From Candidatus Limnocylindria bacterium (GTDB lineage: Bacteria; Chloroflexota; Limnocylindria; QHBO01), in contig JBIOTW010000033.1 of the NCBI GenBank assembly GCA_044866355.1, positions 13,373 to 77,372 of the forward strand: a stretch of 64,000 bases of DNA, in the 5' to 3' direction. The notes under the pieces were generated by a model, which saw nothing but the letters and a program-made list of their open reading frames with translations, made no database searches and was not told the origin of the DNA. Of the stretch, positions 10,668 through 29,995 are shown in pieces. Both the position numbers and the translations under genes were made by a program. Each line of letters starts with the position of its first letter. The first letter of the stretch is position 1.

Positions 10668-11308
10668 GCAGGCATCCGCTGGCGAACGGCGGCCAGCGCG
10701 TCGGCTTCGCGTCTCGCCACGCGGGCTTCGAGCTCGGCCAGGCGCTTCGGGGCGTCAGTGCGGAGGGCGTGCCCTTCGGGCAGCGAGGGGAGGTTGATCG
10801 TGACGTTGAGCGAAGCTCCACGGACGGCGGTCCCGGCCAACAGAGCCGCCACGCCCGCGTCAGTGACGGCGTTGCGATTCCCGATGGGCGCGATGCCCGC
10901 CGCCAGGTCGAGCACCTCCGCTGCGAGCCGGGCGATGCGGAGTGGGACCTCGGTGGCGGCGACCGATGCCTCGCCGATGGCCGCCTTCCGGGTGGCCCGC
11001 TGCTCGTCGTCCTCGCGCGGCATGCGGCGAGCGGCGACCACGGTCAGATAGGCGGTGGCGTCGTCCTCGGCCGCAGTGAGCAGCGACGCGCGCAGCTCGC
11101 CGGCCGCGGTCCCGATCTGGCGGGCGACAGGGTCGACCTCCTCGTATTCGGGCCGTCCAAGGGTCAGCTCACACACCATCTCGACCAGGGCCGCTCCCAA
11201 CGCACCCGAAAGCGCGCTGGCGCTCCCGCCGCCGGGCACCGGGGCCCGCGACGCGAGGCGCGCGGTGAGGTCGCGAACCGTCAGCTCAGCGATGGACGGG
11301 CTGCTCAT
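10664..11308 (-). CDS. Formimino-THF cyclodeaminase / methenyl-THF cyclohydrolase-like protein (FTCD C-domain, FchA family)
   Basis: ~214 aa; N-terminal SIAELTVRDLTARLASRAPVPGGGSASALSGALGAALVEMV matches the cyclodeaminase domain signature; 4-nt overlap with folD start suggests co-transcription. Start placed at internal MSSPS ATG. Confidence 0.6.
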   Translation of the reverse strand: MSSPSIAELTVRDLTARLASRAPVPGGGSASALSGALGAALVEMVCELTLGRPEYEEVDPVARQIGTAAGELRASLLTAAEDDATAYLTVVAARRMPREDDEQRATRKAAIGEASVAATEVPLRIARLAAEVLDLAAGIAPIGNRNAVTDAGVAALLAGTAVRGASLNVTINLPSLPEGHALRTDAPKRLAELEARVARREADALAAVRQRMPA

Positions 11309-11404
11309 GGGCAGCCGATTGTACGGGCGCAAAGGAGAAGCCCGGCGGGCCCGCGGGAGAGGGACGCGGCGCCAGCCGGGCGGCGGGATGGGCTCCGGGA
11401 GCCG

Positions 11405-11689
11405 TCAGGCGGCTGGATCCAGCGCGTCCACGAACCAGCGGCGGCGTCGAGCGTCGAAGACCAGCTCCAACGACTCCCCGGATTCGACCTCCACCACCAG
11501 CATCAGGCGCGGGGAGCTGCCCGCCGGATAGGCGGCCCGTTCGTCGCGCACGGTGGCCAGGCGCAAGATCCGCAGCTCGCGATCGCCGAAGCGGACGCGC
11601 GTCGGCCGGAGCTGCCCCGTATCCCAGGCGACCGACGCCGCAACCGGGGTGATGGAGACGAGAGCCATGAGGTCGACAATACAGAACAT
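11405..11689 (-). CDS. Small hypothetical protein (94 aa) with a LexA box overlapping its start codon
   Basis: ATG at 11687-11689 (reverse) lies inside AGAACATCTGTTCT; no TM segment, no motif I recognise. Alternative start MALVS at 11668. Begins 13 nt downstream of the dinB stop. Confidence 0.4.
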   Translation of the reverse strand: MFCIVDLMALVSITPVAASVAWDTGQLRPTRVRFGDRELRILRLATVRDERAAYPAGSSPRLMLVVEVESGESLELVFDARRRRWFVDALDPAA

Positions 11690-11695
11690 CTGTTC
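11684..11695. promoter_or_regulatory. LexA/SOS box (GAAC-N4-GTTC type), site 1
   Basis: cAGAACatctGTTCTag, palindromic, Gram-positive/actinobacterial LexA operator class; between dinB and the 94-aa ORF. Confidence 0.6.
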
Positions 11696-11701
11696 TAGTT
11701 G

Positions 11702-12883
11702 TCAAGAGTCGGGACGGCGCTTGCTGAACCGCCGTTCTGGCGCCTCGCGGAGCAGACGGGCACGGGTGATGGCCCGGTCGCCGAACTTCTCACGGACCGC
11801 ATCGGTGGCCTCGGCCAGGCGCTGCACGCGCTGGCCGTCGTCGAACAGGGTCAGCTGCTGGGCGTCGACCAGCGAGATGGCGGTGATCCCGATCAGTCGA
11901 ACCGCCCGACCCGGCTCCAGGGTGCGATCGAGGAGCCGATGAACGACCTCGAGCATGACGTGCGCGTCCGTCGTCGGATGCGGGAGCGTCATCTGGCGGC
12001 TCAGCGTCTCGAAGCCCTCGTAGCGGAGCTTGAGCTGGACCCCGCCCGCCGCCACGGAATGGCGCCGCAGGCGGCTCGCCACCGACTCCGCCAGCCATAG
12101 AAGGGTTCCCTCCAGGCCACTCCGCTCGGTGACGTCCACGTTGAAGGTGTGCTCATGACCGATGGACTTGGGGGCGTGGCCCGACACCACCGGGGATCGA
12201 TCGATACCGCGAGCGCGCTGTCCCAATTCCCCACCGTGCCGGCCGAATCGGCGACGCAGGGTCGCCTCCGGGACCGCCGCCAGCTGGCCGATGGTCGTCA
12301 CCCCGTAGTCCGCCAGCGCCTGCCGCACGCGGGGGCCGATGCCCCACAGGCGCGAGACCGGCAACGGGGCCAGGAACGCGGCCTCCTCGCCCGGAGCCAC
12401 CACGACCAGCGCGTCGGGCTTGCGCAGGTCGGAGGCGACCTTGGCCACCAGCTTGTTGGTGGCGACGCCCACGCTGACCACCAGACCGATCTCTTCGCGG
12501 ATGCGTGACTTCAGCGCCCGGCCGATGGTTGGGCCGTCGCCGGCCGGCGCGCCGGTGACGTCGAGAAACGCCTCGTCCATGCTGATCGGCTCCACGAGTG
12601 GCGTGTACGAATCGAAGACCCGCATGACCTGCAGGCTCAGCTCGGCGTATCGCTCTAACCTGCCCGGCAGGAAGACACCTTGTGGGCAGAGGCGGGCGGC
12701 CGTGCGCAGCGGCATGGCCGAGTGGACTCCGAAACGCCGCGCTTCGTAGGACGCAGCGCTCACCACGCCGCGCGCGTCCGGACGCCCGCCCACGATCACC
12801 GGCAGACCGGCCAGCGACGGGTCGTCCAGCACCTCGACCGAGGCGTAGAACGCGTCGAGGTCGGCGTGAAGGATGGTCCGCAT
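11702..12883 (-). CDS. dinB: DNA polymerase IV (Y-family translesion polymerase)
   Basis: 393 aa; MRTILHADLDAFYASVEVLDDP, SMDEAFLDVTG, Y-family palm, thumb and little-finger regions. Confidence 0.9.
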   Translation of the reverse strand: MRTILHADLDAFYASVEVLDDPSLAGLPVIVGGRPDARGVVSAASYEARRFGVHSAMPLRTAARLCPQGVFLPGRLERYAELSLQVMRVFDSYTPLVEPISMDEAFLDVTGAPAGDGPTIGRALKSRIREEIGLVVSVGVATNKLVAKVASDLRKPDALVVVAPGEEAAFLAPLPVSRLWGIGPRVRQALADYGVTTIGQLAAVPEATLRRRFGRHGGELGQRARGIDRSPVVSGHAPKSIGHEHTFNVDVTERSGLEGTLLWLAESVASRLRRHSVAAGGVQLKLRYEGFETLSRQMTLPHPTTDAHVMLEVVHRLLDRTLEPGRAVRLIGITAISLVDAQQLTLFDDGQRVQRLAEATDAVREKFGDRAITRARLLREAPERRFSKRRPDS

Positions 12884-12894
12884 GGATCCCGCGC

Positions 12895-14055
12895 TCAGTC
12901 CGTCCCGGGATACCGGCTGTAGGCGCCAGGGCCGAGGATCGGCAGCAGCCTGTCAGCTTCCGCCTCCAGGGCGTCGCGGTCGGCCGCCTTCAAGCGCCCA
13001 AACGGGCGGAGCTCGATGCGGGCGGCGCCGCCTCGGTCGCGGCGGGGCAGCCACGTCCCGGCCACCATGCCGTCGACCAGGAACGTGGGCAGGACATCCG
13101 CGTTGCGGGTGATGACTGTCGCCTGGTGGGCCGGCGGCAGGACCCGGCTTCGATGGGCCGTGCCGTAGGCCAGCAGCAGGCTGTCCCAGCGGGCGAGGAG
13201 CCGGGGAGGCGCCGGGGTGTCCGCGTCCGGCCGCGGGGCGTCCGGCAGGTCCAGGAGCGTGCGCCCCGCCTCGTCGGTGAAACGGGTCAGGTCCTCGCTC
13301 CCGTCCCCCATTGCCCTGCGCCAGCGCGTCAGCCACTTGCCGCGCCCGACGTACGCAGCCAGGTCCTCGACGCTGGCCGGCCCGAACGCGGCGAGGTATC
13401 GCCGGGCCAGGCGGCTCGTCGCCGCGTCCGGGTCCACCTGCTCAGGATCCGGCTCGCCCAGCCAGTCGCTGGCCGGCGCATATCGCGCCCGACCGTAGGT
13501 CTCCCCGTCGTGCGGCACCTGGATGAGCGGCACGCCTCCGCTGAAGTGGCGCCACAGGCATCGGTAGGGCGGGATCTCCATCCGCCCGACCTTCTCGGCC
13601 AGGATCGACTCGATCTCGTGGATCTGGAGCGGGCGCTCCGTCATGGCCGCCAGCACCGCCGCGTACCCCTTCCGGATTCGGCGGCCGAGGGGAGACGAGA
13701 CCGGATCGCGCTTGTACAGGATCCGCCACTGATTCCAGCGGAACGGCAGAGTCAGGGTGGACATCGCCCAGAAGTCCGTCGCGCTCACGACGTGAACCGT
13801 CAGCCGCATGAGCGAGGCGCGGACCACGGTCCGTCGGGCCCGGGCTCGGGACAGATCGACTGGTGGCACCTTCGTGGCAAGGCGCGTTTGGAGCGCGAGC
13901 GGCGGCCAATCGGGGTGCTGCGCCTGGAGGGAGCCGATCCGTTCGACCAGCCGGGCCACCGGCGCGCGGGGCAGGGAGCGCAGCAGCCCCTGGCGCGCGA
14001 GCGTTGCCCGATTCAGCTGGCGCTGGGTGAGCGTTGGCTGGGCCATGGGTCCCAC
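12895..14055 (-). CDS. Winged-helix DUF1006 protein, YcaQ/AlkZ-family interstrand-crosslink DNA glycosylase candidate
   Basis: 386 aa. N-terminus TLARQGLLRSLPR...RIGSLQAQ resembles the YcaQ/AlkZ N-terminus (E. coli LHLAAQGLL...LLQID) and carries a Q-phi-Q motif (LQAQ). C-terminal VLPTFLVDGMVAGTW resembles YcaQ FVLPLLHRGQLVGRMD. Judged from memory of family sequences, not a search. Confidence 0.5.
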   Translation of the reverse strand: MGPMAQPTLTQRQLNRATLARQGLLRSLPRAPVARLVERIGSLQAQHPDWPPLALQTRLATKVPPVDLSRARARRTVVRASLMRLTVHVVSATDFWAMSTLTLPFRWNQWRILYKRDPVSSPLGRRIRKGYAAVLAAMTERPLQIHEIESILAEKVGRMEIPPYRCLWRHFSGGVPLIQVPHDGETYGRARYAPASDWLGEPDPEQVDPDAATSRLARRYLAAFGPASVEDLAAYVGRGKWLTRWRRAMGDGSEDLTRFTDEAGRTLLDLPDAPRPDADTPAPPRLLARWDSLLLAYGTAHRSRVLPPAHQATVITRNADVLPTFLVDGMVAGTWLPRRDRGGAARIELRPFGRLKAADRDALEAEADRLLPILGPGAYSRYPGTD

Positions 14056-14095
14056 CAGCCTAGCGGCGGCCGCGCCGCCGCCATCGGTCAGTTGG

Positions 14096-14758
14096 TCAGA
14101 GCTTGCGGATGACGCCGACCACCTTGCCCTGGATCTGGAGCTCGGTGGCGTAGATGGGCTCCATTTCGGAGTTGGCCGGCTGGAGGCGGATCCGCCCGTC
14201 CTCGCGGTAGAACCGCTTCAGGGTGACCCCGTTGTCCTCCAGCAGGGCGACCACGATGTCGCCGTCCCGGGCGGTGGCCTGGGGCTGGACGATCACGAAG
14301 TCGCCGTCGTCGATCAGCGCGTCGACCATGCTCTTGCCCCGCACCCGAAGAACGTAGGAGTCCTCGCGGGCCTGGATCGAGCGCGGGACGTCGATGGGCT
14401 CGGGGTCCTGGTAGGCCTCGATGGGCTGGCCGGCCGCGATCTCACCGACCAGTGGCAGCTGCACGGGGTCGCGCTCGACCGGCATTCGGAAGGGCGTCAC
14501 TGCCCCACGGGCTGGCCGTGCGGGCGGTGCGGCGCCGGTGGCCTTGGCGGTCAGGCGCAGGGCGCGGGACGAGCGGCTGCCGCGTTCCAGCTGTCCCGAG
14601 CGTTCGAGCGCAACCAGGTGGTGATGGACCGCGGACGTCGAGGCGAGGCCGACCGCGTCCGCGATCTCGCGGACCGAGGGCGGGTATCCGCGCTCGGCCA
14701 CGGTTCGGGCGATGTAGTCCACGATGCGCTGTCGGCGCTCGGCGTCGTGCCGCGTCAC
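14096..14758 (-). CDS. lexA: LexA repressor
   Basis: 220 aa; N-terminal winged HTH (GYPPSVREIADAVGLASTSAVHHHLVALE), Ala-Gly cleavage site (IAAGQPIEA), S24 peptidase Ser-Lys dyad (RVRGKSM ... TLKRF). Confidence 0.95.
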   Translation of the reverse strand: MTRHDAERRQRIVDYIARTVAERGYPPSVREIADAVGLASTSAVHHHLVALERSGQLERGSRSSRALRLTAKATGAAPPARPARGAVTPFRMPVERDPVQLPLVGEIAAGQPIEAYQDPEPIDVPRSIQAREDSYVLRVRGKSMVDALIDDGDFVIVQPQATARDGDIVVALLEDNGVTLKRFYREDGRIRLQPANSEMEPIYATELQIQGKVVGVIRKL

Positions 14759-14773
14759 GTCGCCAGAGTATCA

Positions 14774-14785
14774 GAACGCCTGTTC
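14774..14785. promoter_or_regulatory. LexA/SOS box, site 2 (lexA autoregulatory operator; shared with divergent DUF1232 gene)
   Basis: cAGAACgcctGTTCTaa located 16 nt upstream of the lexA ATG (14756-14758). Confidence 0.65.
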
Positions 14786-14849
14786 TAATGTCAACGTCTT
14801 GGTATCATCCCGGCCCACCTCGTCCCGTCTGACCGGAGATCGCAGCGAA

Positions 14850-15350
14850 GTGTTCCGTCCCGGCCGGTGGCGTTATCTGCGCGCCGCCAAAGTTCTGCTC
14901 CAGCTCCCCTCCTACGCCCGCCTGGTTTGGGGGCTGGCCCGCGACGCGCGCACCCCCGTCGCCCTCAAGGCCGTGCTCTTCGCAGCCCTGGTCTACGTCA
15001 TCGCTCCCATCGACCTGATTCCGGACGTCATTCCCATCCTCGGTGCGGCCGATGACCTGACCGTCCTGCTCCTTGTCCTGGACCTGTTCATCAGCAATGC
15101 GCCCGCGGCGGTCCGCGAGGAGCACCTGGCTCGGGCCAAGGCCGGGCAGGCAGTGCTCGACGAGGACCTGGCACGCCTCCGCACGCTGCTTGGCGCTCGG
15201 TACGACCGCATCCGGGACACCTTGCCTGAGCTCCTGGATCGATTCGGCGGCCTGCGGGATGCGGATGAGGTCAAGAAGCAGATCGCCGGGTGGCGTGCCG
15301 CACGAGGCAAGACTGACGCGCGCCCCGAGACGCCCGTGGAGGCGAAATGA
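14850..15350 (+). CDS. DUF1232 (YkvA-like) small membrane protein
   Basis: Track ORF 14724-15350; I place the start at GTG ~14850 (MFRPGRWRYL). Conserved KALLYFISPIDLIPDxIPxLGxxDD-type segment (LVYVIAPIDLIPDVIPILGAADDL). Divergent from lexA. Confidence 0.5.
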   Translation: MFRPGRWRYLRAAKVLLQLPSYARLVWGLARDARTPVALKAVLFAALVYVIAPIDLIPDVIPILGAADDLTVLLLVLDLFISNAPAAVREEHLARAKAGQAVLDEDLARLRTLLGARYDRIRDTLPELLDRFGGLRDADEVKKQIAGWRAARGKTDARPETPVEAK

Positions 15351-15823: not shown

Positions 15824-15835
15824 GAACGGGTGTTC
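15824..15835. promoter_or_regulatory. LexA-like box, site 3, in the rplI-dnaB intergenic region
   Basis: cAGAACgggtGTTCGat, about 145 nt upstream of the dnaB GTG; same extended AGAAC-N4-GTTC core as sites 1 and 2. Confidence 0.4.
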
Positions 15836-17338: not shown

Positions 17339-17492
17339 CCAGAGCCGGTTTCACACCTTCCCTCCCTCTTGACAGCCGCGTATAGTCGGCCGCTGGAACG
17401 TCCGGAACACCAGCTCATCCCAGGTCGCGATCCACGGCCCGAGGAGCCGGAGAACCGAGGGCCGGGCGGCCACGACACGGAGGAGAGGACAG

Positions 17493-17792
17493 GTGTTCAC
17501 CGACAAGACCATCACGTGCCGCGACTGCGGGATGGACTTCGTCTTCTCGGCCGGGGAGCAGCAGTTCTACCAGGAGAAGGGGCTGACCCACGAGCCCCAG
17601 CGGTGTGCCAGCTGCCGCGCGGTGGCGAAGCAGAACCGCGCCCTGGGAATCGGCACCGGTGGCGGAGCCCGCGAGATGCACGCCGCGGTATGTGCTGAGT
17701 GCGGGGGCCAGGCCCTGGTGCCGTTCCTTCCCCGCAACGACCGTCCGGTCTACTGCAGCAGCTGCTTCGACAAGGTTCGCGCCCGCTCCTGA
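17493..17792 (+). CDS. Small zinc-ribbon protein with two CxxC pairs
   Basis: 99 aa; GTG start 8 nt after GGAGGAGAGG; TCRDCGMDFVFSAGEQQFYQEKGLTHEPQRCASCR and CAECGG...YCSSC. Confidence 0.55.
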   Translation: MFTDKTITCRDCGMDFVFSAGEQQFYQEKGLTHEPQRCASCRAVAKQNRALGIGTGGGAREMHAAVCAECGGQALVPFLPRNDRPVYCSSCFDKVRARS

Positions 17793-17853
17793 GCCCGGCC
17801 CACTCCTGACCCGGGCCTGACCTGGCACTCGCCCGCCTATACTGCGGGCCCAC

Positions 17854-19032
17854 ATGGAGCCCGGCACGCTGCTTCGCCCACCGACCGAGGTCGGCGGCCG
17901 TCTGCGCCGGGCATACGGCTTCGAGGAGGTCTCCCTCGTGCCGGGGGCCACGACGGTCGAGCCGGCCGAGGTCGACACCGCAGTCGAGATCGGGCCACTC
18001 CGCATGGAGATCCCGTTCCTGGCCGCCGCCATGGACGCGGTCAGCGACCCCGACATGGCCGTGCGCATGCATCGGCTGGGCGGGCTGGCCGTGGTCAACC
18101 TCGATGGCCTGTACACCCGCTATGCCGATGCCGGCCCGATCATCGAGCAGGTCGTCGAGGCCCCGAATGCGGTCGAAGCCGGGCGGGTGCTGGCCGAGGC
18201 CTATGCGGAGCCGATCCGCACCGACCTGATCGGCGCCCTGATCACCCGCATCAAGTCCGCGGGGGCCGCTGCGGCGGTGGCCACCACCCCGGCCTCCGCC
18301 TGGGACCACGCGGCGGTGGCGGCCGAGGCCGGGGCCGACCTGTTCGTGGTCCAGTCCCAGGTCTCGAGCGCCCGACACATCTCGACCTCGGGTCGAGTCC
18401 TCTCCCTGTCGGACCTCACCGGCGCGCTTCGTCTTCCGGTGTTGGTGGGCAACACGGTGAGCGGCGACGCCGCCTACCAGCTCATGGAGCAGGGCGCGGC
18501 CGGGATCCTGGTCGGAGTGGGGCCGGGTGCGGCGTGCACCACGCGGGAGGTGCTCGGGATCGGTGTGCCGCAGGTGTCGGCCACGCTGGAGGTGGCCGCG
18601 GCCCGGGATCGGTTCCTGGCCGAGACCGGACGGTACGTCCCGATCATCACCGACGGGGGGATGAAGACCGGCGGCGACATCGCCAAGGCCATCGCATCGG
18701 GAGCCGATGCCGTCATGCTGGGGACGCCACTGGCGGGCGCACTGGAAGCCCCGGGTCGAGGTTTCAACTGGGGCATGGCGGCGCCATCGCCGACCCTCCC
18801 ACGTGGGACGCGGATCCACCTCGGGGAGCGTCTGCCTCTGGAGCAGATCCTGTTCGGGCCGGCGAGGACCACCCACGGCACACAGAACCTGGTGGGCGCG
18901 CTGCGCCAGAGCATGGGCGCGTTGGGCGCCCGCACGATTCGGGACATGCACCAGGTGGAGATGGTCGTGGCCCCGGCCATCGCCACCGAAGGCAAGTCCT
19001 GGCAGATGGCCGTGGACGACCCGCTGCGTTGA
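17854..19032 (+). CDS. IMP dehydrogenase/GMP reductase family protein lacking the CBS pair (GuaB3-like)
   Basis: 392 aa TIM-barrel IMPDH-family protein; active-site loop GVGPGAACTTREVLGIGVPQ resembles IMPDH GIGPGSICTTR; no CBS insertion. Confidence 0.7.
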   Translation: MEPGTLLRPPTEVGGRLRRAYGFEEVSLVPGATTVEPAEVDTAVEIGPLRMEIPFLAAAMDAVSDPDMAVRMHRLGGLAVVNLDGLYTRYADAGPIIEQVVEAPNAVEAGRVLAEAYAEPIRTDLIGALITRIKSAGAAAAVATTPASAWDHAAVAAEAGADLFVVQSQVSSARHISTSGRVLSLSDLTGALRLPVLVGNTVSGDAAYQLMEQGAAGILVGVGPGAACTTREVLGIGVPQVSATLEVAAARDRFLAETGRYVPIITDGGMKTGGDIAKAIASGADAVMLGTPLAGALEAPGRGFNWGMAAPSPTLPRGTRIHLGERLPLEQILFGPARTTHGTQNLVGALRQSMGALGARTIRDMHQVEMVVAPAIATEGKSWQMAVDDPLR

Positions 19033-19478
19033 TCCGGTTCTCGCGTCGCGTATCGCTGGCGGCGCCTCCGGAGGCCGTGTGGCCCTGGATCGCCGACCCG
19101 ACACGCTTCGCCGAGTGGCGCAAGGGCGCTGGGGTGACGAGCGCCGCCCCGGTCGACGACGGGCAGATGGGGGTGGGCCGCCGATTTCGGATGGACGTCA
19201 CGGCCCAGGGACGCTCCGCCACGCTGGAGTGCACCGTGACCGCGTACGAGCCGAACCGGCGCTTCGCGTTCGCATCCAAGGATGCCTCCGGCTTCGCCGG
19301 CTCGGCGGACACACGCATCGAGCCGGAGGCAGCGGGCACGCGGCTGGACTTCGCGTTCGAGCTCCAGCTCCCCGGCGGCTGGCGCCTGATGCAACCGGTG
19401 ATCAGCCGCGCCCTCGAACAGGCGGCGGACACCGATTTCGCGACCCTGCAGGCCAAATTGGGGCCCAGCCATGGGTGA
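19029..19478 (+). CDS. SRPBCC (START/Bet v1/polyketide-cyclase-like) family protein
   Basis: ~149 aa from TTG overlapping the upstream stop; [22 protein letters not shown] is a typical SRPBCC N-terminus. Confidence 0.45.
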
Positions 19479-21180
19479 CGCCGAGCAGCGGGGCAGGACG
19501 GTCCATGGCGAGGCGGCCAACGCCGGTCACCGGGTCCTGGCGCCCGATGACGTGGAGGTCGAGGCCTACCTCGAGCAGGCGCTGCAGGCGGGGGCGCCGG
19601 CGCCCGCCACACAGCCCCCCAGCGAGCTCGGGGAACCGCCCGCCGAGCCGCAGACCATCGTGGTGCTCGATTTCGGCGGCCAGTATGCCCAGCTCATCGC
19701 GCGCCGCGTGCGCGAGCTGAACGTCTACTCCGTCCTGCTCCCCCACGACACCCCGTGGGAGGAGATCGCCGCCCGACGTCCGGTGGGGATCATCCTGTCG
19801 GGCGGGCCGGCATCGGTCTATGACGACGGCGCGCCGCAGGCGGATCCGCGTATCTGGGAGGGCCGCGTCCCGGTCCTGGGCATCTGCTACGGGATGCAGC
19901 TGATGGCCCATCAGCTCGGCGGTCGGGTCGCCCCCGCCGATCGCCGCGAGTACGGTCCGGCGACGATCCAAGCCGCGCCTGACGAGCCGCTGCTCGCCGG
20001 CCTGCCGGGGGCCGCGCCGGTCTGGATGAGCCACGGGGACTCGATCCTGGAGCCGCCACCCGGCTTCCGCACGCTTGCTTCGAGCGAATCCACGCCCCAT
20101 GCCGCAATGGCCAACGAGCGCGGCCTGATGGGCCTCCAGTTCCACCCCGAGGTCGCCCATACACCCCAGGGCCGCGAGATTCTCGCCAACTTCGCGCTGC
20201 GCATCGCGGGTGCGCGTGGCGACTGGACCCCGGCCGGGTTCATCGGTGCCACGGTGGCCACCATTCGGGCCGAGGTGGGGGACGGTCAGGTCATCTGCGC
20301 GCTGTCCGGCGGCGTGGACAGCGCGGTGGCGGCGACCCTCGTCCATCGGGCTGTTTCGGACCAGCTGACCTGTATCTATGTCGACACCGGGCTCATGCGC
20401 AAGCGTGAGTCGGAGCTGCTGCGAGCCACGTTCGAGCAGAACCTCGGCATGCAGCTGCGGATGGTCGACGCCCGCGACCGCTTCCTGCACCGCCTGGCGG
20501 GGGTCACCGACCCGGAGGACAAGCGGCGGATCATCGGGGACGAGTTCATCCGGGTCTTCGAGGAGGAAGCCGTCCGCCTCGGACCCATCGACTTCCTGGT
20601 CCAGGGGACGCTGTACCCCGACGTCATCGAGTCCAAGACGGCCGAGTCCAAGGCGGCCGCCAAGATCAAGACCCACCACAACGTGGGAGGTCTCCCCGCC
20701 GACCTCCGGTTTCGGCTGATCGAGCCGCTCCGCCACCTGTTCAAGGACGAGGTCCGGCGGGTGGGGACCGAGCTCGGCCTGCCGGCGGCCATGATCCAGC
20801 GTCAACCCTTCCCCGGCCCGGGCCTCGCCATCCGGGTCATCGGCGAGGTCACGCCCTCCCGCCTGGAGACCCTGCGCGACGCGGACTGGATCGTCCTGGA
20901 CGAGATCAAGGCCGCGGGCCTGTACGACCAGCTGTGGCAGAGCTTCGCCATCCTGACCCCCATCGACACCGTGGGCGTCATGGGCGACGGTCGCACCTAC
21001 GCCAACGTGGTCGCCGTCCGGGCCGTGACCTCCGACGACGGGATGACCGCCGACTGGGCCCGCCTGCCCTACGACCTGCTGGCCCGCATCAGCGCCCGGA
21101 TCGTGAACGAGGTGCCCGGCGTGAACCGGGTCGTCTACGACGTGAGCAGCAAGCCGCCGGCCACCATCGAGTGGGAGTAG
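19471..21180 (+). CDS. guaA: GMP synthase (glutamine-hydrolysing)
   Basis: GATase-1 domain ([28 protein letters not shown], catalytic GICYGMQL), ATP-PPase SGGVDSAV, C-terminal dimerisation domain. The ATG at 19471 leaves a ~60-aa low-complexity N-terminal extension; the true start may be later. Confidence 0.9.
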
Positions 21181-21206
21181 CCCCTCCCCGTAGGATGCGC
21201 TGACCG

Positions 21207-24149
21207 ATGTCCTCGTGGTTCGACAAGCTGCTCGAAGAGATGCAGCGGCGGCAGATGGAGCAGGATCGTGCCCGCCAGGGACGACCGCTGCGCCCCGATG
21301 AGCCGGTGGGCCCGCCGGAGGAGCAGATCCCCGACGACGAGGGTGGCTCCCGACCCCCACCCTTCAGACGGCGCCGCCGCCGGCGCGGCGGGCCCAATCC
21401 ACCCGGCAACTGGATCCGGCCGGTGCTGTTCCTGGCCGGCGCGTTCGTGCTGCTCCAGCTCCTGGGTGGCCTGATCGAGCTGTTCACCGATCTGGCGTGG
21501 TACGACGCCCTGGGGCGCCGCGACGTCCTGCTGACCCGCTTCGTCGCCCACCTGGGCTGGTTCATGGCCGGGTTCGCGCTGTTCACGATTCCGGCCCTGG
21601 TCAGCCTGTGGGCGGCGGCGCGCCTCGGGCCCCAGGTGCCGGTGCGCCGGGTGGGCCCGGTCGAGCTGCCGGATCTCTCCCGCCCGGTCGGGTTCGTGCT
21701 GGGGGCGCTCGCGGTCCTGGGCGGGCTGGTCAGCGGCCTGGCGTGGGGTGGCAGCTGGCAGACAATCCTCCTGTTCTTCAACGGAGGCGATTTCGGGACC
21801 AGCGACGCGGCCTTCGGCCGCGACATCGGCTTCTACGTCTTCGACCTGCCCTTCTGGCGCTTCGCCCAGGGCTGGGTGGTCACCGCGCTGGCCGCCATCA
21901 TCGGTCTGACGGTGGGTGCCTATGCCGTATCCGCCACCAGATGGACGTTCCAGCTGACGGCGCCGGTTCGCGTCCACCTCAGCCTGCTGGGCGCGGCGCT
22001 CCTGCTGGCGATCGCCGGCGGGTACCAGCTGGACATCGCGGACCTGACGTACTCAACGCGCGGCATCGGGGGGACCGTCCAGGCGGCGATGTACACGGAC
22101 ATCAACGCGCAGGCCCCGGCCTACCTGATCCTGAGCGGGGTGGCCGTCGTGTCGGCCGGGCTGCTGCTGGCCAACATCTGGTTCCGCACCCTGTGGCTCA
22201 TCGGCCTGGCGGCAGGCGCCTGGTTCGTGCTGTCGCTGCTCGTGGGCGGCGTCTATCCGGGCATCGTCCAGCGCTTCACGGTGGAGCCCAACGAGCTGGA
22301 TCGCGAGCGCGTCTACCTCGAGCGCCACCTGGCCGCGACCCGGGCCGCGTACGACCTGGAATCCATCGAGCTGCGCGCGTTCACCGGGGAGCAGCGCCCC
22401 ACCCGGGCCCTGTTCGACCAGAACCCGGAGACCCTCAACAACCTGCGCCTGTGGGACTACCGTCCCCTGTTGGTGACCTTCGGCCAGCAGCAGATCCTGC
22501 GCCAGTACTACAACTTCCTGGACGTCGACATCGACCGATACGTCATCGATGACCAGCAGCGCCAGCTGATGCTGTCCGGCCGCGAGATCGAGATCGACCG
22601 ATTGGCGGATGCGGCCCGCACCTGGACCAATGAGCGGTTGGTGTTCACCCACGGATACGGCCTGACGGCGGTGGCATCCAATGCCATCACCCCGGAGGGC
22701 CAGCCCGACTACCTCATCAGCGGGATCAACCGGGAGCCGGACCTGCCAGTGGGCGAGCCGCGGCTCTACTTCGGCGAGGCGACCGACGACTACGTGGTGG
22801 TCCGGACCCGCACCGCGGAGTTCGACTTCCCGCTGGGTGACGAGGGGGGCGAGACGACCTCGTGGGCCGGCCAGACCGGGGTGCGGGTCGACAACGTCCT
22901 GTCTCGCCTCCTGTTCGCCATTCGATTCGGCGACCTGAACCTGCTCATCAGCGACCAGCTCACGGACGACTCGGTCGTCCTTTTCCGGCGGGCCATCTGG
23001 CAGCGGGTCCCGGAGCTCGCCCCGTTCCTGCACTACGACGCCGATCCGTACCTGGTCAGCGCCGACGACCGGCTGGCGTGGATCTGGGACGCGTACACGA
23101 CCTCGGACCGCTACCCGAACGCGCAGCCGCTGCCGCCGGAGACCGCGTTCGGTGGTGCGAACTACGTCCGCAATGCGGTCAAGGTGGTGATCGACGCCTA
23201 CACCGGCGAGATGCGCTTCTTCGTGGCCGATGCGGACGATCCGATCGTTGCCGCGTGGGGCCGGATCTTCCCCGGCCTGTTCGAGCCACTGGCGGACATG
23301 CCCGAGGCGCTGGTCCCTCACCTGCGCTACCCGGAGGACCTGTTCACCGCCCAGAACACGGCGTACCTGCTCTACCACATCGCGCCGACCGCCGCCGGGG
23401 CCGGGACCTTCTACAACCAGGAGGACCGCTGGTCGTTCCCGACCCAGCAGATCGATGTCGCTGGTGAGGGTCGGGAGGTGGAGCCCTACTACGTGATCAT
23501 GAAGGTCCCCGGCGAGGACGCCGGTGAGTTCGTCCTCATCCAGCCCCTGGTGGCCGCCAGCCGGCCGAACATGATCTCCTGGGTCGCAGCGCGCATGGAC
23601 CCCGGGGTCTACGGCGAGCGGATCGAGTTCCGGTTCCCGGTCGACACCACCACCCAGGGACCGGCCCAGATCCAGGCCCGGATCAACCAGGACTCGCGCA
23701 TCAGCGCCCAGTTCACGCTCTGGAGCCAGGCCGGGTCGGAGGTCGTGCGGGGCGACCTGCTGGTGCTGCCGATGGGGGACTCGGTCCTGTACGTCGAGCC
23801 GATCTACCTGCGTTCCACGCAGTCCAGCTTCCCCGAGTTCAAGCGCGTGATCCTGACCGATCAGACCCGGATCGCCTTCGCCGAGACGATCGACGAGGCG
23901 CTGCGCCAGCTGCTGGGGGAGTCCGAGATCCCGGAGCCGGGCGGCGACGGTGACGGGGGTGGGGGTGGCGTGCTGCCCGATGACGTGGCACAGCTCATCG
24001 CCCTGGCCCAGGAGCTGTACGACGACGCGCAAGCTGCGCTGGAGCGGGGAGACCTGGGCGCCTACCAGGACGCGGTGGACGAGTTGGGACGGGTCCTGGA
24101 CCGCATCGCCGAGCTGACCGGATCGCCACCGCCGTCACCCGCCCCCTGA
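21207..24149 (+). CDS. UPF0182-family large membrane protein
   Basis: 980 aa; N-terminal 7-TM block beginning LFTDLAWYDALGRRDVLLTRF followed by a large extracytoplasmic domain, the architecture and length of actinobacterial UPF0182 proteins. Confidence 0.65.
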   Translation: MSSWFDKLLEEMQRRQMEQDRARQGRPLRPDEPVGPPEEQIPDDEGGSRPPPFRRRRRRRGGPNPPGNWIRPVLFLAGAFVLLQLLGGLIELFTDLAWYDALGRRDVLLTRFVAHLGWFMAGFALFTIPALVSLWAAARLGPQVPVRRVGPVELPDLSRPVGFVLGALAVLGGLVSGLAWGGSWQTILLFFNGGDFGTSDAAFGRDIGFYVFDLPFWRFAQGWVVTALAAIIGLTVGAYAVSATRWTFQLTAPVRVHLSLLGAALLLAIAGGYQLDIADLTYSTRGIGGTVQAAMYTDINAQAPAYLILSGVAVVSAGLLLANIWFRTLWLIGLAAGAWFVLSLLVGGVYPGIVQRFTVEPNELDRERVYLERHLAATRAAYDLESIELRAFTGEQRPTRALFDQNPETLNNLRLWDYRPLLVTFGQQQILRQYYNFLDVDIDRYVIDDQQRQLMLSGREIEIDRLADAARTWTNERLVFTHGYGLTAVASNAITPEGQPDYLISGINREPDLPVGEPRLYFGEATDDYVVVRTRTAEFDFPLGDEGGETTSWAGQTGVRVDNVLSRLLFAIRFGDLNLLISDQLTDDSVVLFRRAIWQRVPELAPFLHYDADPYLVSADDRLAWIWDAYTTSDRYPNAQPLPPETAFGGANYVRNAVKVVIDAYTGEMRFFVADADDPIVAAWGRIFPGLFEPLADMPEALVPHLRYPEDLFTAQNTAYLLYHIAPTAAGAGTFYNQEDRWSFPTQQIDVAGEGREVEPYYVIMKVPGEDAGEFVLIQPLVAASRPNMISWVAARMDPGVYGERIEFRFPVDTTTQGPAQIQARINQDSRISAQFTLWSQAGSEVVRGDLLVLPMGDSVLYVEPIYLRSTQSSFPEFKRVILTDQTRIAFAETIDEALRQLLGESEIPEPGGDGDGGGGGVLPDDVAQLIALAQELYDDAQAALERGDLGAYQDAVDELGRVLDRIAELTGSPPPSPAP

Positions 24150-24157
24150 GTTCGGCC

Positions 24158-24991
24158 TTGGTGCGCGACTGGCTGGGCGAAGGGCTGGCCGCCGCCCGGA
24201 TCGCCGCCGACCGACCCGAGCTGTGGATCCCCGGTGCGATCGTGTCGTTCGCCTCCGCGGGCTGGGTCGTGTTCCTGGCGGTCGTCGCCTCGCCGGCCGA
24301 CGAGAACGACGTCCTGTTTCTCGGGATCCGGCTGGCGGCCAGCCCGTGGTGGCCGTGGAACCTGGTCGCCCTGGTGGCGGCGGTGCTGTCCGGAATGGGG
24401 ACGATGCTGCTGGCCGTCGCGTTTGGTGAGGTGGCGCTCCAGATGGGCCTTTCGGAGGATCGGCGCGAGATCCCGACCATCCCGCGCGCCATGGCTGCCC
24501 TCGCACTGCCCGGGGGCGCGGTCCTGATCGTCGCCGCAGCCCTGGTCTGGGCTTCGGTGCCGGCCTTCACCGATGCGCTGATCCATTCCGATCAGGCCGC
24601 CCCATACCTGGTCCGGCTGGCCGTTTCCGCGTTCCCGGCGCTGCTCGCCCTCGTCGTGGCGGCCGTCGTGGCCCAGGCCGTTGGGGCCGTGGCGTTGCGA
24701 CGGCCGTGGAACGCCGCGCTGTCGACGCTCCGACGCCGAGGCGGGCGCCTGGTCGCCCAGGCAGCGGTGACCATGGCCCTGTTCGTCGCTGCTCAGTCGG
24801 TGACCGTGATGGTCCTCGCGGCGCTGTGGCGGCCCCTGTCCGGACGCCTGGCGTCGGGCGGTGTGGCGGAGCCGGCGACCCCTATCCTCCTGCTAGGCTT
24901 CGTGTGGATCTGGCTCGTGCTGGTGATCCTGGCCGGCGTCATCCAGGCCTGGATCGCCGCCTGGTGGAACCGGGAGCTGGAGCGCGAATAG
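24158..24991 (+). CDS. Hypothetical polytopic membrane protein
   Basis: 277 aa, ~6 hydrophobic helices, no motif I recognise; starts 9 nt after the UPF0182 stop. Confidence 0.4.
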   Translation: MVRDWLGEGLAAARIAADRPELWIPGAIVSFASAGWVVFLAVVASPADENDVLFLGIRLAASPWWPWNLVALVAAVLSGMGTMLLAVAFGEVALQMGLSEDRREIPTIPRAMAALALPGGAVLIVAAALVWASVPAFTDALIHSDQAAPYLVRLAVSAFPALLALVVAAVVAQAVGAVALRRPWNAALSTLRRRGGRLVAQAAVTMALFVAAQSVTVMVLAALWRPLSGRLASGGVAEPATPILLLGFVWIWLVLVILAGVIQAWIAAWWNRELERE

Positions 24992-25009
24992 AACGTTGAG
25001 CACACCGCG

Positions 25010-25498
25010 ATGACACCCCATCTGCCGCCTGAGCTCCAGGCCGAGCTCGCCCTGCGCCTGGCCCTGAGCCTGGGCCTGGGTGCTGTCATTGGATTCGAGC
25101 GGGAGTACCACCGCCGGGCGGCCGGCTTTCGAACGCACAGCCTGGTCGCCCTGGGTGCGGCGCTGTTCACCGTGGTGGGCGCCTACGGATTCGAGGAGGG
25201 GGACCCCACCCGAATTGCGGCCCAGATCGTGACCGGCATCGGTTTTATCGGGGCAGGAACCATCCTCCAGTACCGCGGGAGCGTGCGCGGCCTCACCACG
25301 GCGGCTTCGCTGTGGGCCGTGGCCGCGGTGGGGATGGCGGCCGGCGCCGGCCTGTACGTCCTGGCGCTTGTCGGCTCGCTCCTCGTCCTCGTGGCCCTGT
25401 GGCTCATGGATCGGCTGGCGGAACGGGCCCGCGAAGCCGGGCTCCTGCCTCCGGAAGACGACAAGATGCCTGCGCCGCGACCCAAAGACGATCGGTGA
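25010..25498 (+). CDS. MgtC/SapB family membrane protein
   Basis: 162 aa; LALSLGLGAVIGFEREYHRRAAGFRTHSLVALGAALFTVVG is the MgtC signature. Confidence 0.8.
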   Translation: MTPHLPPELQAELALRLALSLGLGAVIGFEREYHRRAAGFRTHSLVALGAALFTVVGAYGFEEGDPTRIAAQIVTGIGFIGAGTILQYRGSVRGLTTAASLWAVAAVGMAAGAGLYVLALVGSLLVLVALWLMDRLAERAREAGLLPPEDDKMPAPRPKDDR

Positions 25499-26283
25499 CC
25501 GACGCTTCCGTGTGCCGGCGCTGCGGCACGGCCAACCGTCCCGGCATCTCCTTCTGCGCGAACTGCGGCCAGCGGCTGGTCGCCGCCGAGGACGCCACCA
25601 TGAGTCGGCCCGGCTCCGTCGCCGAATCGGCGCCCTGCCCGCGCTGCGGTGCGATCAATCGAGCCGGCTCTGCGTTCTGCTCGGAGTGCGGATTCAACAT
25701 TCGGCTGGCGGTGACCCCCGCGGCGGGTTCTTTCGCCAGCCCGGCCGACGCGGCGCTCCACGAGGGCAGACCGGCGCCACTCCCCGAGGCAGCGGCGCCA
25801 AGCACGGACCGACCGGTGCGCGCTTGGCTGGGGCCCATGGTCATGACCATCGCCGCGGTCGGGCTGGGGACGGCCTGGTTCCTGCCCTTCTCCCAGGTCG
25901 AGGGCTCGCTGGCCGATCAGGCCCTCGGCCCCTCGGGCTACGGCCTGGCCTTCTGGACGGCCTATCCCGCCGATGCGGGACTGCTCCAGTCCACCTATTT
26001 CGGCGTGGCCGCTCCGCTGCCGATCCTGGTGGGGATGCTCCTGGTGCTGGCCGGGGTGGGCATCCTGCGCGGGTCGCCGGGCCGGCCGCAGCGGATCGGC
26101 CTGTGGATCGTCCTGGTGTGGTGCGCGGTGCTCGCCATCCTGTTCGTGGTGGTCGAGATCGGATCGGGCCTCGGGGACGACCTCATCGACCTCCTGCGCG
26201 GGCTGTCGCCGGCGGGGCTGATCGGGTTCCTGTCGGGGATCATCGGCGCCATCGGGTCCGTGACCCGCTTGGCCGGAGGCTGA
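25495..26283 (+). CDS. Double zinc-ribbon membrane protein
   Basis: GTG overlapping the mgtC stop; two CxxC-x10-13-CxxC ribbons (CRRCGTANRPGISFCANCG; CPRCGAINRAGSAFCSECG) then ~5 TM helices. Confidence 0.5.
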   Translation: MTDASVCRRCGTANRPGISFCANCGQRLVAAEDATMSRPGSVAESAPCPRCGAINRAGSAFCSECGFNIRLAVTPAAGSFASPADAALHEGRPAPLPEAAAPSTDRPVRAWLGPMVMTIAAVGLGTAWFLPFSQVEGSLADQALGPSGYGLAFWTAYPADAGLLQSTYFGVAAPLPILVGMLLVLAGVGILRGSPGRPQRIGLWIVLVWCAVLAILFVVVEIGSGLGDDLIDLLRGLSPAGLIGFLSGIIGAIGSVTRLAGG

Positions 26284-26294
26284 AGGGGGTCTGG

Positions 26295-28010
26295 CTAGCC
26301 CGCCTGCTCGGCAGGCCGGAGCGGGGATTCGAGACCGGGAGCTTCTCCGGCCGTCTCCGGAGGGCTTGGCACAGGACGTCTGCGTCGCGCGTCCGAGTCG
26401 GCGGCGGCCGCCTCGGCAGGCGGGGCTGGGTGTGCAGAGGAGGCTGCGCCGGCGTTGAGCAGGGCGGCGGCTCGCGGGTCGATCACCTCCAACCCGCCGT
26501 GCGCATACGCATGGAGGCGCTGAACCTCCTCCTGGCCGTCGGACGGGACCTCGTCGCCGAAGACCGCCGAGAAGACCTCGACCACGGTCGGATCGAACTG
26601 GGTGGAAGCGTGGCGCCGCAGCTCGGCCAGGGCCTGGGCATGGGAGAGCGCGGCCTTGTAGGGACGCTCGTGAACCATGGCGTGGTAGGCGTCCGCCACG
26701 GCCACGATCCGCGCCCCGAGCGGGATCTCCTCCCCGCGCAGGCCGTGGGGATATCCCGTCCCGTCGTAGCGCTCGTGGTGGTGGAGGACGATGGGGACGG
26801 CGTCTCGCATGCTGGTCGCCTGCTCGAGGATGACCTGACCGATGCGGGGGTGCTCGCCGACCACCTGCCACTCGAGCTCGGTCAGCGAGGAAGGCTTGTC
26901 CAGGATGGCGTCGGGGAGAGCCAGCTTGCCCAGGTCGTGGAGCAGGGCCGCGATCCGGATTCGCTCCATCTCGATCCGTGACAGGCCCATGTGGAGCGCC
27001 ACCCCGATCGACAGGGCGGCGATCATGTCGGACGGCCGTCCCCGATGATTCGGCTGAGGAGCCAGGACCGATGCCAGCGCCTGCGCGGCGCTGGCGCCGG
27101 CCCAGCGCCCGATGGCCGCCGCCGCATCGCGCCGCTCTGAGGTGATCGCGGCGCGTGGGATCTGCGTGTCGTCGGTGACGTCGCCGGCGAGATAGCTCCG
27201 GTTGCGGCCCTCGGACTTGGCGACGTACATCGCGGCGTCCGCCGCATCGACGATGCGGTCGACAAGCAGGTCGGAGCCGTGGCCACCGGCCACGCCGATG
27301 CTGATCGTCGCATCCACCAGGATGCCCACCCCCACGTTGAGAGGACGCCGCATGACCATCTCTCGCAGCTCCTCGACCAGGACGAGCGCGTCGGCGGGCG
27401 CGGTCTCGGGGAGGATCAGCATGAACTCCTCCCCGCCATACCGACCGAAGATGTCGCTGGCCCGGATGCTGCGTGTGATGAGCCCGGCCAGCTGGCGCAG
27501 GACCGCGTCGCCCACTCGGTGGCCGTAGGTGTCGTTGATCGCCTTGAATCGGTCAATGTCCATGAATGCCACTGACAGCGGCTTCGAATGACGTGTCGCG
27601 CGCTCGACCTCGGCGGTCAGCTGCAGGATCAGCGATTCGCGGTTCGGGACGCCGGTCAGCCGGTCGCGCGTGGCCTGCGCCTCGGCCAGGGCAAAGCTGC
27701 CGGCGGCGCGGTTGAATGCCCGCGCCAGGCGACGCTCGTCGGGCACGCCCGACTCCTTGAGCTGCACCGGCTGCCCCTCATCGACGGTTCTTTCCAGGTC
27801 CCGTGCCAGGCGCCGGAGACGGAGCCCGAAGTAGGCCCAGGTCGCCAGGGCCATGGCCGTGGCGCCCACGCCGATGGCCAGCCCCACCAGCCCGATCGTG
27901 AATCCCCTGGTCTCGGGCGGCTGGTGCACCAGCATCGCTCCCAGGAGTGTCAGGCAAACGGCGGCCAGCGCGGGGTACAGGAAGCCGATGAGCCTCAGAA
28001 GCCCGAGCAA
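26295..28010 (-). CDS. Membrane-anchored GGDEF diguanylate cyclase fused to HD-GYP c-di-GMP phosphodiesterase
   Basis: 571 aa; 2 N-terminal TM helices; GGDEF domain (RYGGEEFMLILPE, product-inhibition site RxxD present); HD-GYP domain (HDLGKLALP ... HHHERYDGTGYP). Confidence 0.85.
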   Translation of the reverse strand: MLGLLRLIGFLYPALAAVCLTLLGAMLVHQPPETRGFTIGLVGLAIGVGATAMALATWAYFGLRLRRLARDLERTVDEGQPVQLKESGVPDERRLARAFNRAAGSFALAEAQATRDRLTGVPNRESLILQLTAEVERATRHSKPLSVAFMDIDRFKAINDTYGHRVGDAVLRQLAGLITRSIRASDIFGRYGGEEFMLILPETAPADALVLVEELREMVMRRPLNVGVGILVDATISIGVAGGHGSDLLVDRIVDAADAAMYVAKSEGRNRSYLAGDVTDDTQIPRAAITSERRDAAAAIGRWAGASAAQALASVLAPQPNHRGRPSDMIAALSIGVALHMGLSRIEMERIRIAALLHDLGKLALPDAILDKPSSLTELEWQVVGEHPRIGQVILEQATSMRDAVPIVLHHHERYDGTGYPHGLRGEEIPLGARIVAVADAYHAMVHERPYKAALSHAQALAELRRHASTQFDPTVVEVFSAVFGDEVPSDGQEEVQRLHAYAHGGLEVIDPRAAALLNAGAASSAHPAPPAEAAAADSDARRRRPVPSPPETAGEAPGLESPLRPAEQAG

Positions 28011-28280
28011 GCGATCCTCCGGATGGTGGGGACGAGCGCAGCATCGGGCCAGCCCGCCGAAAGGGCCATGGCCTGATCGTCAGGTGCGAACTTGCGAGCC
28101 GTGACCGATTGCTTCCGCGGGGGCCGTTGTGGGGTCCGGTGGAGTACTCACCCCGGACCAATGGCGGGGGCCAGAGGTCGTCTGGGGTCGCCGAACGGTC
28201 ATCTGCTAGGATGACGCGCGCGTTTGGCGTGCCATGGAGGCGCGCTCGCCCCGCGTCCCCCCACAGAGAGGCATCGGCGA

Positions 28281-28868: not shown

Positions 28869-28974
28869 CCGAACCGGCCGACCAGGGGGGCAACGGTCCT
28901 CAGCCGGCACCAGATCCCCTCCTCGCGGATCCTCCCAGGCCGTCCCCGCCACAGTCGCTCCTCCCGGAGCCGCT

Positions 28975-29030
28975 GCCCCCCGCGCCGCTGCCCGCCGCGC
29001 CGCTGCCCCCCGCGCCGCTCCCCCCTGCCT
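28975..29030. repeat. Tandem ~18-nt GC-rich repeat (ccgcgccgctgcccccc x3), encodes PAPLPP repeats in the CPBP reading frame
   Basis: Direct repetition visible in sequence: cgcgccgctgcccgccgcgccgctgccccccgcgccgctcccccc. Confidence 0.6.
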
Positions 29031-29068
29031 GGCCAGCATGGGTCATCGCCGGTCTGGGCCTCATCGTC

Positions 29069-29935: not shown

Positions 29936-29995
29936 GGACCCGATGGAAATCGGCCGATAAGTCCCGAGACGGGGCCATCGGCGAAGGTCTGGGGC

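Follow-up and report, generated by a model that had tools for sequence, protein, structure and literature searches.

In this study, we analysed a 64,000-nucleotide (nt) stretch of contig JBIOTW010000033.1 from a Candidatus Limnocylindria bacterium, called the window throughout, and focused on a small minus-strand gene that follows dinB, the gene for DNA polymerase IV (Pol IV). We propose that this gene is directly repressed by LexA and that it probably encodes a short-lived SOS product, for which the likeliest role would be that of a damage checkpoint or a regulatory inhibitor of division or replication and not that of an enzyme. As judged from sequence comparison, the protein is new, in that it matches no family and no recognisable fold, and the logic of its regulation appears to be classical. 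An exact LexA operator fills the spacer of the gene's own promoter, operators are found upstream of its relatives in all loci examined, and the protein ends in a conserved Ala-Ala tail.

Operator, promoter and start codon of the small gene

The 14-mer AGAACATCTGTTCT occupies positions 11683-11696 and contains the core GAAC-N4-GTTC, which is the LexA motif of Firmicutes and Actinobacteria (PMC4951493); a passage of the same article, which cites a Dehalococcoides study, reports variations of GAAC-N4-GTTC for Chloroflexi (PMC4951493). Four exact boxes are present in the window against 0.5 expected, and none of 100 shuffles reached four. Read on the minus strand, the promoter region is cTTGACAactaGAACagatGTTCtgTATTGTcgacctcATGgct and consists of the -35 hexamer, the box within an 18-nt spacer, the -10 hexamer TATTGT, 7 nt and then the ATG, with 10 of 12 positions matching the consensus, that is, a near-consensus promoter of the sigma-70 type. 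When 11200-15000 (3.8 kb) was scanned for promoters, two sites were returned against 0.2 expected, namely this promoter and that of lexA. Although it may in addition modulate read-through from dinB, as the initial annotation suggested, the operator is plainly a promoter operator first and foremost. No Shine-Dalgarno sequence is present in the 7 nt between the -10 and the ATG of the window gene, and the arrangement typical of leaderless genes, with the -10 at 6-8 nt from the start and no Shine-Dalgarno sequence, is kept in 14 close relatives; the mRNA of the window's clade is thus predicted to be, probably, leaderless. The lexA promoter has the same design: in full it reads TTGACA, tta, GAACaggcGTTC, t, GATACT, 8 nt and GTG, and its box appears as GAACAGGCGTTC on the minus strand (14774-14785) and as GAACGCCTGTTC on the plus strand. 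Since this layout (GATACT, 8 nt, GTG) matches that of the small gene, lexA too looks leaderless. The small gene therefore has what is expected of a member of a LexA regulon, namely an operator that overlaps the promoter and is conserved upstream of orthologues, and a canonical LexA with the same motif in its own promoter.

The evidence for direct repression comes to a large part from comparison with relatives. Altogether 89 loci, corresponding to 84 distinct upstream sequences and to protein identities of 37%-91%, were analysed for exact GAAC-N4-GTTC boxes at most 160 nt upstream of the start. One or more exact boxes were found in 84 of the 84 distinct loci and two in 70 of them, whereas the background density elsewhere in the same loci was 0.10 per kb (67 boxes in 644 kb), nearly all of these being the lexA promoter box (26 loci with positions listed). 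Five further divergent loci each have an exact box upstream as well. A promoter alignment of 14 relatives (64-91% protein identity) showed TTGACAA, TAGAACA..TGTTC and TAT..T to be invariant and the 3' end of dinB, like the 6-8 nt ahead of the ATG or GTG, to be variable. In the window's clade (at least 64% identity) there is a single box, and a leader is absent. In the other clades, TTGAC(A/G) is followed by a first box in the spacer, a TATGCT-like -10, a second box close behind it, a leader that is conserved and the Shine-Dalgarno sequence GGAG. Where there are two boxes, the commonest distance between them is 33 nt, or about three turns of the helix. In loci L025-L078, from the two-box clades, pairing is possible between the conserved leader GAGTGCCCGRGCAGG of the 5' untranslated region and operator 2, in its right half (CCTGTTCG with CGAGCAGG), giving a 5' hairpin.

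The boxes also persist where dinB has none. Where lexA does not lie directly upstream of dinB, no box was found within 300 nt of dinB, even with one mismatch allowed, in 28 of 29 loci, and in the same 28 loci the small gene retains its boxes. This suggests that Pol IV may be outside SOS regulation in much of the class. (The loci of the box-less dinB set are L005-L009, L032, L039, L046-L047, L051, L062-L063, L077 and L079-L089.) In the L091/L092 lineage, which represents a divergent 105-residue subfamily on contigs of 62% GC, the gene is not located behind dinB, and rplI and dinB are on the other strand; nevertheless TTGACA, two exact boxes and the Shine-Dalgarno sequence are all retained upstream of it. 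Because the boxes persist both without a dinB box and without dinB adjacency, we conclude that the operator belongs to the small gene and not to dinB. That the gene may be directly LexA-repressed had been suggested in an initial annotation of the window, and with a box in the gene's own -35/-10 spacer, and with exact boxes ahead of the gene in all 84 distinct loci and in the five divergent ones, the comparative evidence for this is strong.

Two other exact boxes of the window were considered. The one at 11726-11737 was rejected as a second operator: it coincides with the codons Glu-Arg-Arg-Phe (E-R-R-F) of the dinB 3' end and has been lost from the closest relatives by a synonymous change, which makes it a by-product of the coding sequence. 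The other, GAACGGGTGTTC at 15824-15835, is located in the interval from rplI to dnaB and is without counterpart in L003 or L004, where the listed boxes are only those at lexA and at the small gene, and in L001 the single box outside the upstream region of the small gene is presumably the lexA box. The 15824-15835 box is probably due to chance or very recent.

The minus-strand open reading frame (ORF) that directly follows dinB extends over 11405..11689 and would encode 94 residues, and its first ATG (11689-11687) had been taken in the initial annotation as a start codon inside the LexA box. This ATG does fall within the box; however, the homologues and the promoter layout place the start of the gene at 11668. 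A search of 5.8 billion proteins returned 52 close homologues, almost all of 87 residues and with the N-terminus MALVSITP, a start that corresponds to the second ATG (11668-11666), 21 nt downstream of the in-box ATG, and nearly all homologues have 85-93 residues and an MA(L/F/M)V N-terminus. The in-box ATG is missing in close relatives, in which the boxes read GAACATCTGTTC, GAACATTTGTTC or similar: most relatives have ATCT, ATTT, ACCT or the like at the centre of the box, and AGAT is shared by L012 only, where the in-box ATG is present but out of frame. As the interval between the -10 and the conserved ATG or GTG varies both in length (6-8 nt) and in sequence among the 14 relatives, it is noncoding, and as the -10 is located past the box and ahead of the true start, transcripts initiated at the small gene's promoter would exclude the in-box ATG. 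On this evidence, the in-box ATG is a chance feature of one variant of the box, and it precedes the predicted transcription start.

The protein family and its C-terminal tail

Several lines of evidence indicate that the gene is real. The GC content at third codon positions is 87%, and relative to three orthologues of 91% identity the differences at codon positions 1/2/3 are 8/1/33, 8/1/29 and 6/1/39, with 27-33 synonymous and 8 non-synonymous codon changes. Substitutions are mostly at third positions, and we therefore regard this as a coding gene under purifying selection; an overlapping ORF of 363 residues on the plus strand was discarded as the usual high-GC artefact. The initial annotation had proposed conservation of the ORF and its box in relatives with lexA-dinB as a check, and the ORF proved to be conserved. 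Profile searches gave 534 and then at least 1012 clusters at 90% identity, a full scan of 1.84 billion representatives with a hidden Markov model gave 93 clusters at 50% identity, and 287 stretches encoding a relative are present in GTDB species-representative genomes. The source names are all Chloroflexota, Candidatus Limnocylindria or Limnocylindrales, apart from a few contigs in otherwise labelled metagenome-assembled genomes (MAGs), and as far as the databases show the family appears restricted to the Chloroflexota class Candidatus Limnocylindria. Seven loci (L010, L021, L027, L030, L034, L044 and L053) are of the Limnocylindria type on contigs of differently labelled MAGs (Pleomorphomonadaceae, Vicinamibacterales, Steroidobacteraceae, Binatia or Angelobacter), and these odd labels likely reflect bin contamination or mis-binning. 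Domain fusions were not accepted, the longer matches being frameshift read-throughs into FTCD_C or GC-rich alternative frames, and a subtilase chimera that was seen once is probably an assembly artefact.

An AlphaFold2 model computed with 43 sequences has a mean predicted local distance difference test score (pLDDT) of 87 and a predicted template modelling score of 0.75, and consists of six beta strands and one short helix. The earlier claim that there is no transmembrane segment agrees with this all-beta soluble domain and with the hydropathy profile, in which the highest 19-residue Kyte-Doolittle mean is 1.0 for the window protein and 1.06 across the family. Taken with the comparative data, 11405-11668 of the window encodes a genuine 87-residue protein, which is predicted to be cytosolic and all-beta. 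In 83 orthologues P8, R41, E43, A46, P48, P53 and W78 are invariant, and V13, D16, R21, P22, V40, D42, Y47, R54, R76 and R77 are nearly so. In the model, the V40-R54 block (VRDERAAYPAxxGPR) connects strands 3 and 4 as a loop that includes a short helix, and confidence is lowest in this part (block pLDDT 74); the block is likely to be an interaction site. In L091/L092 this central loop is degenerate (RREYGVFSASEGPR). Each protein contains 10-17 Arg residues, most of them 13-17, and the net charge ranges from 0 to +7 (median +3, window protein +1); nucleic-acid binding was considered but not adopted, as the protein is Arg-rich but its net charge modest.

The description of the protein as one of unknown family held when it was compared with Pfam, NCBIfam, PADLOC, PHROGs and the PDB. 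Scans of the protein and of distant members against the first four of these gave no match, with no Pfam family at E<=0.1; the sole weak NCBIfam line (E = 0.1) is far below the cut-off and was regarded as noise, as was the single match (E = 0.25) of a sequence profile search of the PDB. Foldseek returned nothing at E<=0.001 from the PDB or from the viral structures of BFVD. A profile comparison with the window's LexA and DinB revealed no relation, and descent from an S24 domain or from a little-finger domain was dropped after it.

The C-terminus of the protein is strongly conserved. Complete orthologues end in AA in 80 of 83 cases and in VA in the other 3, and the window protein ends in ...LDPAA. 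Ala-Ala is kept in spite of a total length that varies between 85 and 101 residues in these 83 orthologues, and the entropy is 2.75 at position -3, where P (23), R (21), A (14) and Q (13) are found, compared with 0.22 and 0.09 for the last two positions. In E. coli, a terminal Ala-Ala is critical for ssrA-like C-terminal degrons of ClpXP (PMC10862746). The terminal Ala-Ala with a free carboxylate that defines this class of ClpXP signals (C-motif-1) is present in the protein, and its conservation suggests, as a reasonable inference, that the tail is a ClpXP-type degron. Leu or other hydrophobic residues at -3 to -5 would be favourable to such a degron. From work by Neher et al. in 2003, the N-terminal fragment of E. 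coli LexA is reportedly removed by ClpXP by way of the ...VAA terminus that cleavage creates; at the equivalent position, the window's LexA reads IAAGQP.

Neighbouring genes and limits of the transcription unit

The window has a GC content of 70%. Upstream of the small gene on the minus strand lie dinB (11702..12883; Pfam IMS, IMS_C and IMS_HHH matches), a gene for an AlkZ-like glycosylase (12895..14055) and lexA (14096..14758), whose product is a canonical LexA with Pfam LexA_DNA_bind and Peptidase_S24 domains. Together lexA, the gene for the AlkZ/YcaQ-like interstrand-crosslink glycosylase and dinB form an apparent operon with a single LexA-boxed promoter (12895-14758 for the part up to dinB), and among relatives some have the alkZ-like gene and others lack it. 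The small gene lies within or adjoins the lexA operon in many lineages, and dinB is upstream of it in nearly all loci, but not in the L091/L092 lineage. We regard dinB as genomic context, and adjacency need not imply a functional partnership with the small protein. A DUF1232 membrane-protein gene (about 14800-15350, plus strand) overlaps the start of rplI (15347) and is always divergent from lexA, also in L001 and L003-L008, and is kept beside lexA even if lexA is inverted relative to dinB; since it shares the lexA operator region, it may respond to LexA too. Further away, 17373-30598 encodes a treble-clef zinc-finger protein after dnaB, which is kept in relatives, IMPDH, GMP synthase, a 981-residue UPF0182 protein, MgtC, a GGDEF-HD protein and a RadC-like JAB protein, and no exact LexA box was found at these genes.

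Downstream of the small gene lies the one-carbon cluster FTCD_C-folD-fhs, with the FTCD_C ATG at 11308. Between the two, a GC-rich hairpin was found by RNAalifold with 12 relatives (16 pairs, three with compensatory changes), and in other clades a different strong hairpin occurs at the same location; the hairpin is likely to represent the transcript end of the small gene. Its loop, CCCTCTCCC, is invariant, which is unusual for a plain terminator. The TACAAT element (Table 1) is a promoter element of FTCD_C itself and sets the downstream limit of the small gene's unit, and in L003 an opposite-strand gene follows the small gene. The small gene thus appears to be a separate, monocistronic unit between dinB and the one-carbon cluster, with the caveat for the boundary that psiE starts only 21 nt after it in L091/L092. 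On the upstream side, the terminator scan of the window found no terminator between dinB and the small gene.

Table 1. Features at the small gene and at the lexA promoter, in window coordinates
Feature	Position	Strand	Basis
Coding sequence of the 87-residue protein (MALVSITP...LDPAA), stop included	11405..11668	-	Homologue lengths and shared Met start
MFCIVDL stretch, 21 nt, the extra 7 codons of the 94-residue reading	11669..11689	-	Promoter/operator sequence, noncoding; missing from homologues
LexA operator GAAC-N4-GTTC (14-mer AGAACATCTGTTCT, 11683-11696)	11684..11695	.	Exact match, fills the promoter spacer
-35 hexamer TTGACA, overlapping the dinB stop TGA (11704-11702)	11700..11705	-	Promoter scan; invariant in close relatives
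-10 hexamer TATTGT, 7 nt before ATG 11668	11676..11681	-	Promoter scan; TAT..T invariant
lexA promoter of the same design (TTGACA, box, GATACT, 8 nt, GTG 14758)	14767..14794	-	Promoter scan
Codons of residues 40-54 (VRDERAAYPAGSSPR), most conserved segment	11507..11551	-	83-sequence alignment
C-terminal Ala-Ala codons, putative ClpXP-type degron	11408..11413	-	Orthologue C-termini
GC-rich hairpin, 16 bp, loop CCCTCTCCC, 23 nt past the stop codon	11340..11381	-	RNAalifold
TACAAT, 9 nt before the FTCD_C ATG (11308)	11318..11323	-	Invariant in every locus inspected, distant ones included

Possible role of the protein and known SOS effectors

According to the scheme that we propose, LexA would hold the small gene off, and upon DNA damage the RecA-stimulated cleavage of LexA would turn it on via a leaderless mRNA. 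The C-terminal Ala-Ala would make the protein a ClpXP substrate, so that it would vanish soon after LexA rebinds, and while present it would act in a stoichiometric manner, contacting a partner with the loop R41-D-E-R-A-A-Y-P...G-P-R54 and the R76-R77-W78 patch. Protease control is known for SOS products that do harm in cells without DNA damage, as in the case of SulA with Lon, of UmuD with ClpXP and of RecN, which combines three SOS boxes with ClpXP. Tight and often double operators combined with an apparent degron follow the logic of such harmful, transient products, and for this reason a checkpoint protein or inhibitor is favoured. The initial annotation had called the gene a candidate new SOS effector, and the comparison lends good support to a directly LexA-repressed gene of no known family. 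A bolder version, which we put forward only tentatively, is that the protein represents an unrecognised kind of SOS checkpoint effector with a new beta fold, which would arrest division or replication, or alter the programme of the replisome, via the RDERAAYP...GPR loop before being cleared by ClpXP through its Ala-Ala tail upon rebinding of LexA; the gene would then be, beside lexA, the most constantly LexA-controlled gene in these Limnocylindria loci.

Several points weigh against a short-lived checkpoint protein made from its own transcript. The assignment of a target is a best guess, and the small protein is not a membrane protein, whereas the known Gram-positive SOS division inhibitors are. 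With regard to the tail, Ala-Ala is not sufficient for degradation in E. coli (PMC10862746), and Pro at -3, as in DPAA of the window protein, is disfavoured there (PMC10862746), although Chloroflexota ClpX may differ. Furthermore, 4 of the window's 41 likely proteins (about 10%) end in AA anyway, and the most divergent members end in HA or TA, three divergent C-termini being SAA, VHA (L091/L092) and ATA. As to the transcript, no clear U-tract follows the hairpin, for which the terminator scan gave no call; with this and no terminator after dinB, co-transcription on either side is possible.

The main rival explanation, which we consider a close but unlikely alternative, is that the protein is an accessory or regulatory subunit of Pol IV with a UmuD-like logic, binding the polymerase or the clamp and switching translesion synthesis on or off. 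Y-family polymerases often have a small partner, for example UmuD or ImuA, and in nearly all of the approximately 90 loci the gene directly follows dinB, with both on the same strand, including loci with rearrangements of lexA and of the gene preceding dinB; in the window its -35 even overlaps the dinB stop codon. Yet it has its own promoter and no translational coupling to dinB, and it keeps its boxes in the 28 of 29 loci without lexA directly upstream in which dinB is box-less. The linkage is also not absolute, as in L091/L092 the gene and dinB are apart, dinB being found past rplI on the opposite strand, and in L085 about 2 kb with intervening ORFs separate it from the dinB match. The FTCD_C-folD neighbours are equally conserved, and therefore synteny with dinB may be mere inertia. 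The mirror-tree correlation with DinB was gone after a control with folD (partial r = 0.12), but this is a weak method and not strong evidence against a partnership, and the profile comparison gave no relation to DinB or to the S24/LexA fold.

We think it rather improbable that the protein is a feedback modulator of the SOS switch in the manner of DinI, RecX or gp7, one that would bind the RecA filament or LexA to tune cleavage. Small LexA- or RecA-binding proteins do exist, for example gp7 of phage GIL01 (PMC4551915). A small, soluble, LexA-regulated protein whose gene is in or adjoins the lexA operon in many lineages would suit such a function; however, no similarity to DinI, RecX or gp7 was found in Pfam, PHROGs or the PDB, none to LexA was found by profile comparison, and nothing points specifically to RecA or LexA. 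It is very improbable that the ORF is an incidental leader of the one-carbon operon FTCD_C-folD-fhs and that the LexA promoter serves those genes: the gene does precede FTCD_C in every locus, with both oriented alike, psiE follows it by 21 nt in L091/L092 and the scan called no canonical terminator, but its protein sequence is under clear purifying selection, a conserved hairpin and the invariant TACAAT promoter stand between it and FTCD_C, and an opposite-strand gene intervenes in L003. That a 94-residue form is made from a start codon buried in the operator, with LexA binding and translation initiation overlapping, is scarcely credible, since the in-frame ATG at 11689, which dinB read-through transcripts would contain, is not conserved, is out of frame in the closest relative that has it, lacks a Shine-Dalgarno sequence and precedes the gene's own -10.

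SOS regulons consist of a small common core and of lineage-specific effectors that are non-homologous between phyla. To our knowledge, no lineage-specific SOS effector has been described for Chloroflexota, and in our literature search nothing was found on SOS or LexA in Limnocylindria. Exact LexA operators are present at the small gene in all of the approximately 90 Limnocylindria loci examined, and dinB often has none, which makes the gene the obvious first candidate for an output of the damage response in an abundant, uncultured class of soil and freshwater bacteria. It also provides an example of one gene with two regulatory solutions, a single operator with a predicted leaderless mRNA and two operators with a leader. 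As the protein is short, soluble and confidently modelled, its synthesis and testing in a heterologous host are feasible.

Among known systems, the division inhibitors YneA, ChiZ/Rv2719c, DivS and SosA and the Caulobacter proteins SidA and DidA are likewise small, lineage-specific and fast-evolving LexA targets encoded near lexA, but they are membrane-anchored, many of them with LysM, whereas the protein described here has no hydrophobic segment, no LysM and no Pfam match. DinI and gp7 of phage GIL01 are also small soluble proteins tied to the SOS switch; however, no sequence or structural similarity to them was found with Pfam, NCBIfam, PHROGs, the PDB profile search or Foldseek. UmuD/UmuD', the partner of the Y-family polymerase UmuC, is similar in being small, beta-rich, LexA-regulated, protease-controlled and encoded beside a Y-family polymerase gene. 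It differs in its S24 peptidase fold with a Ser-Lys dyad and a cleavage site, which the small protein does not share. Furthermore, the small gene follows the polymerase gene and has a promoter to itself, the polymerase is of the DinB type and the linkage is broken in one lineage. SulA of E. coli, which is degraded by Lon, is an alpha/beta protein of 169 residues with no sequence or fold similarity to the 87-residue all-beta protein, for which the protease signal would be the Ala-Ala tail and FtsZ as a target is pure conjecture. Nevertheless the proposed logic is alike, with a cytosolic protein under a strong LexA operator that would be unstable by design and act stoichiometrically on another protein. 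RecN is a large SMC-like ATPase, and the resemblance is regulatory only: in E. coli its gene has three SOS boxes and the protein a C-terminal signal for ClpXP (PMC10714372), and, as would hold for the small protein, multiple exact LexA operators together with a short C-terminal degron confine it to damaged cells (PMC10714372).

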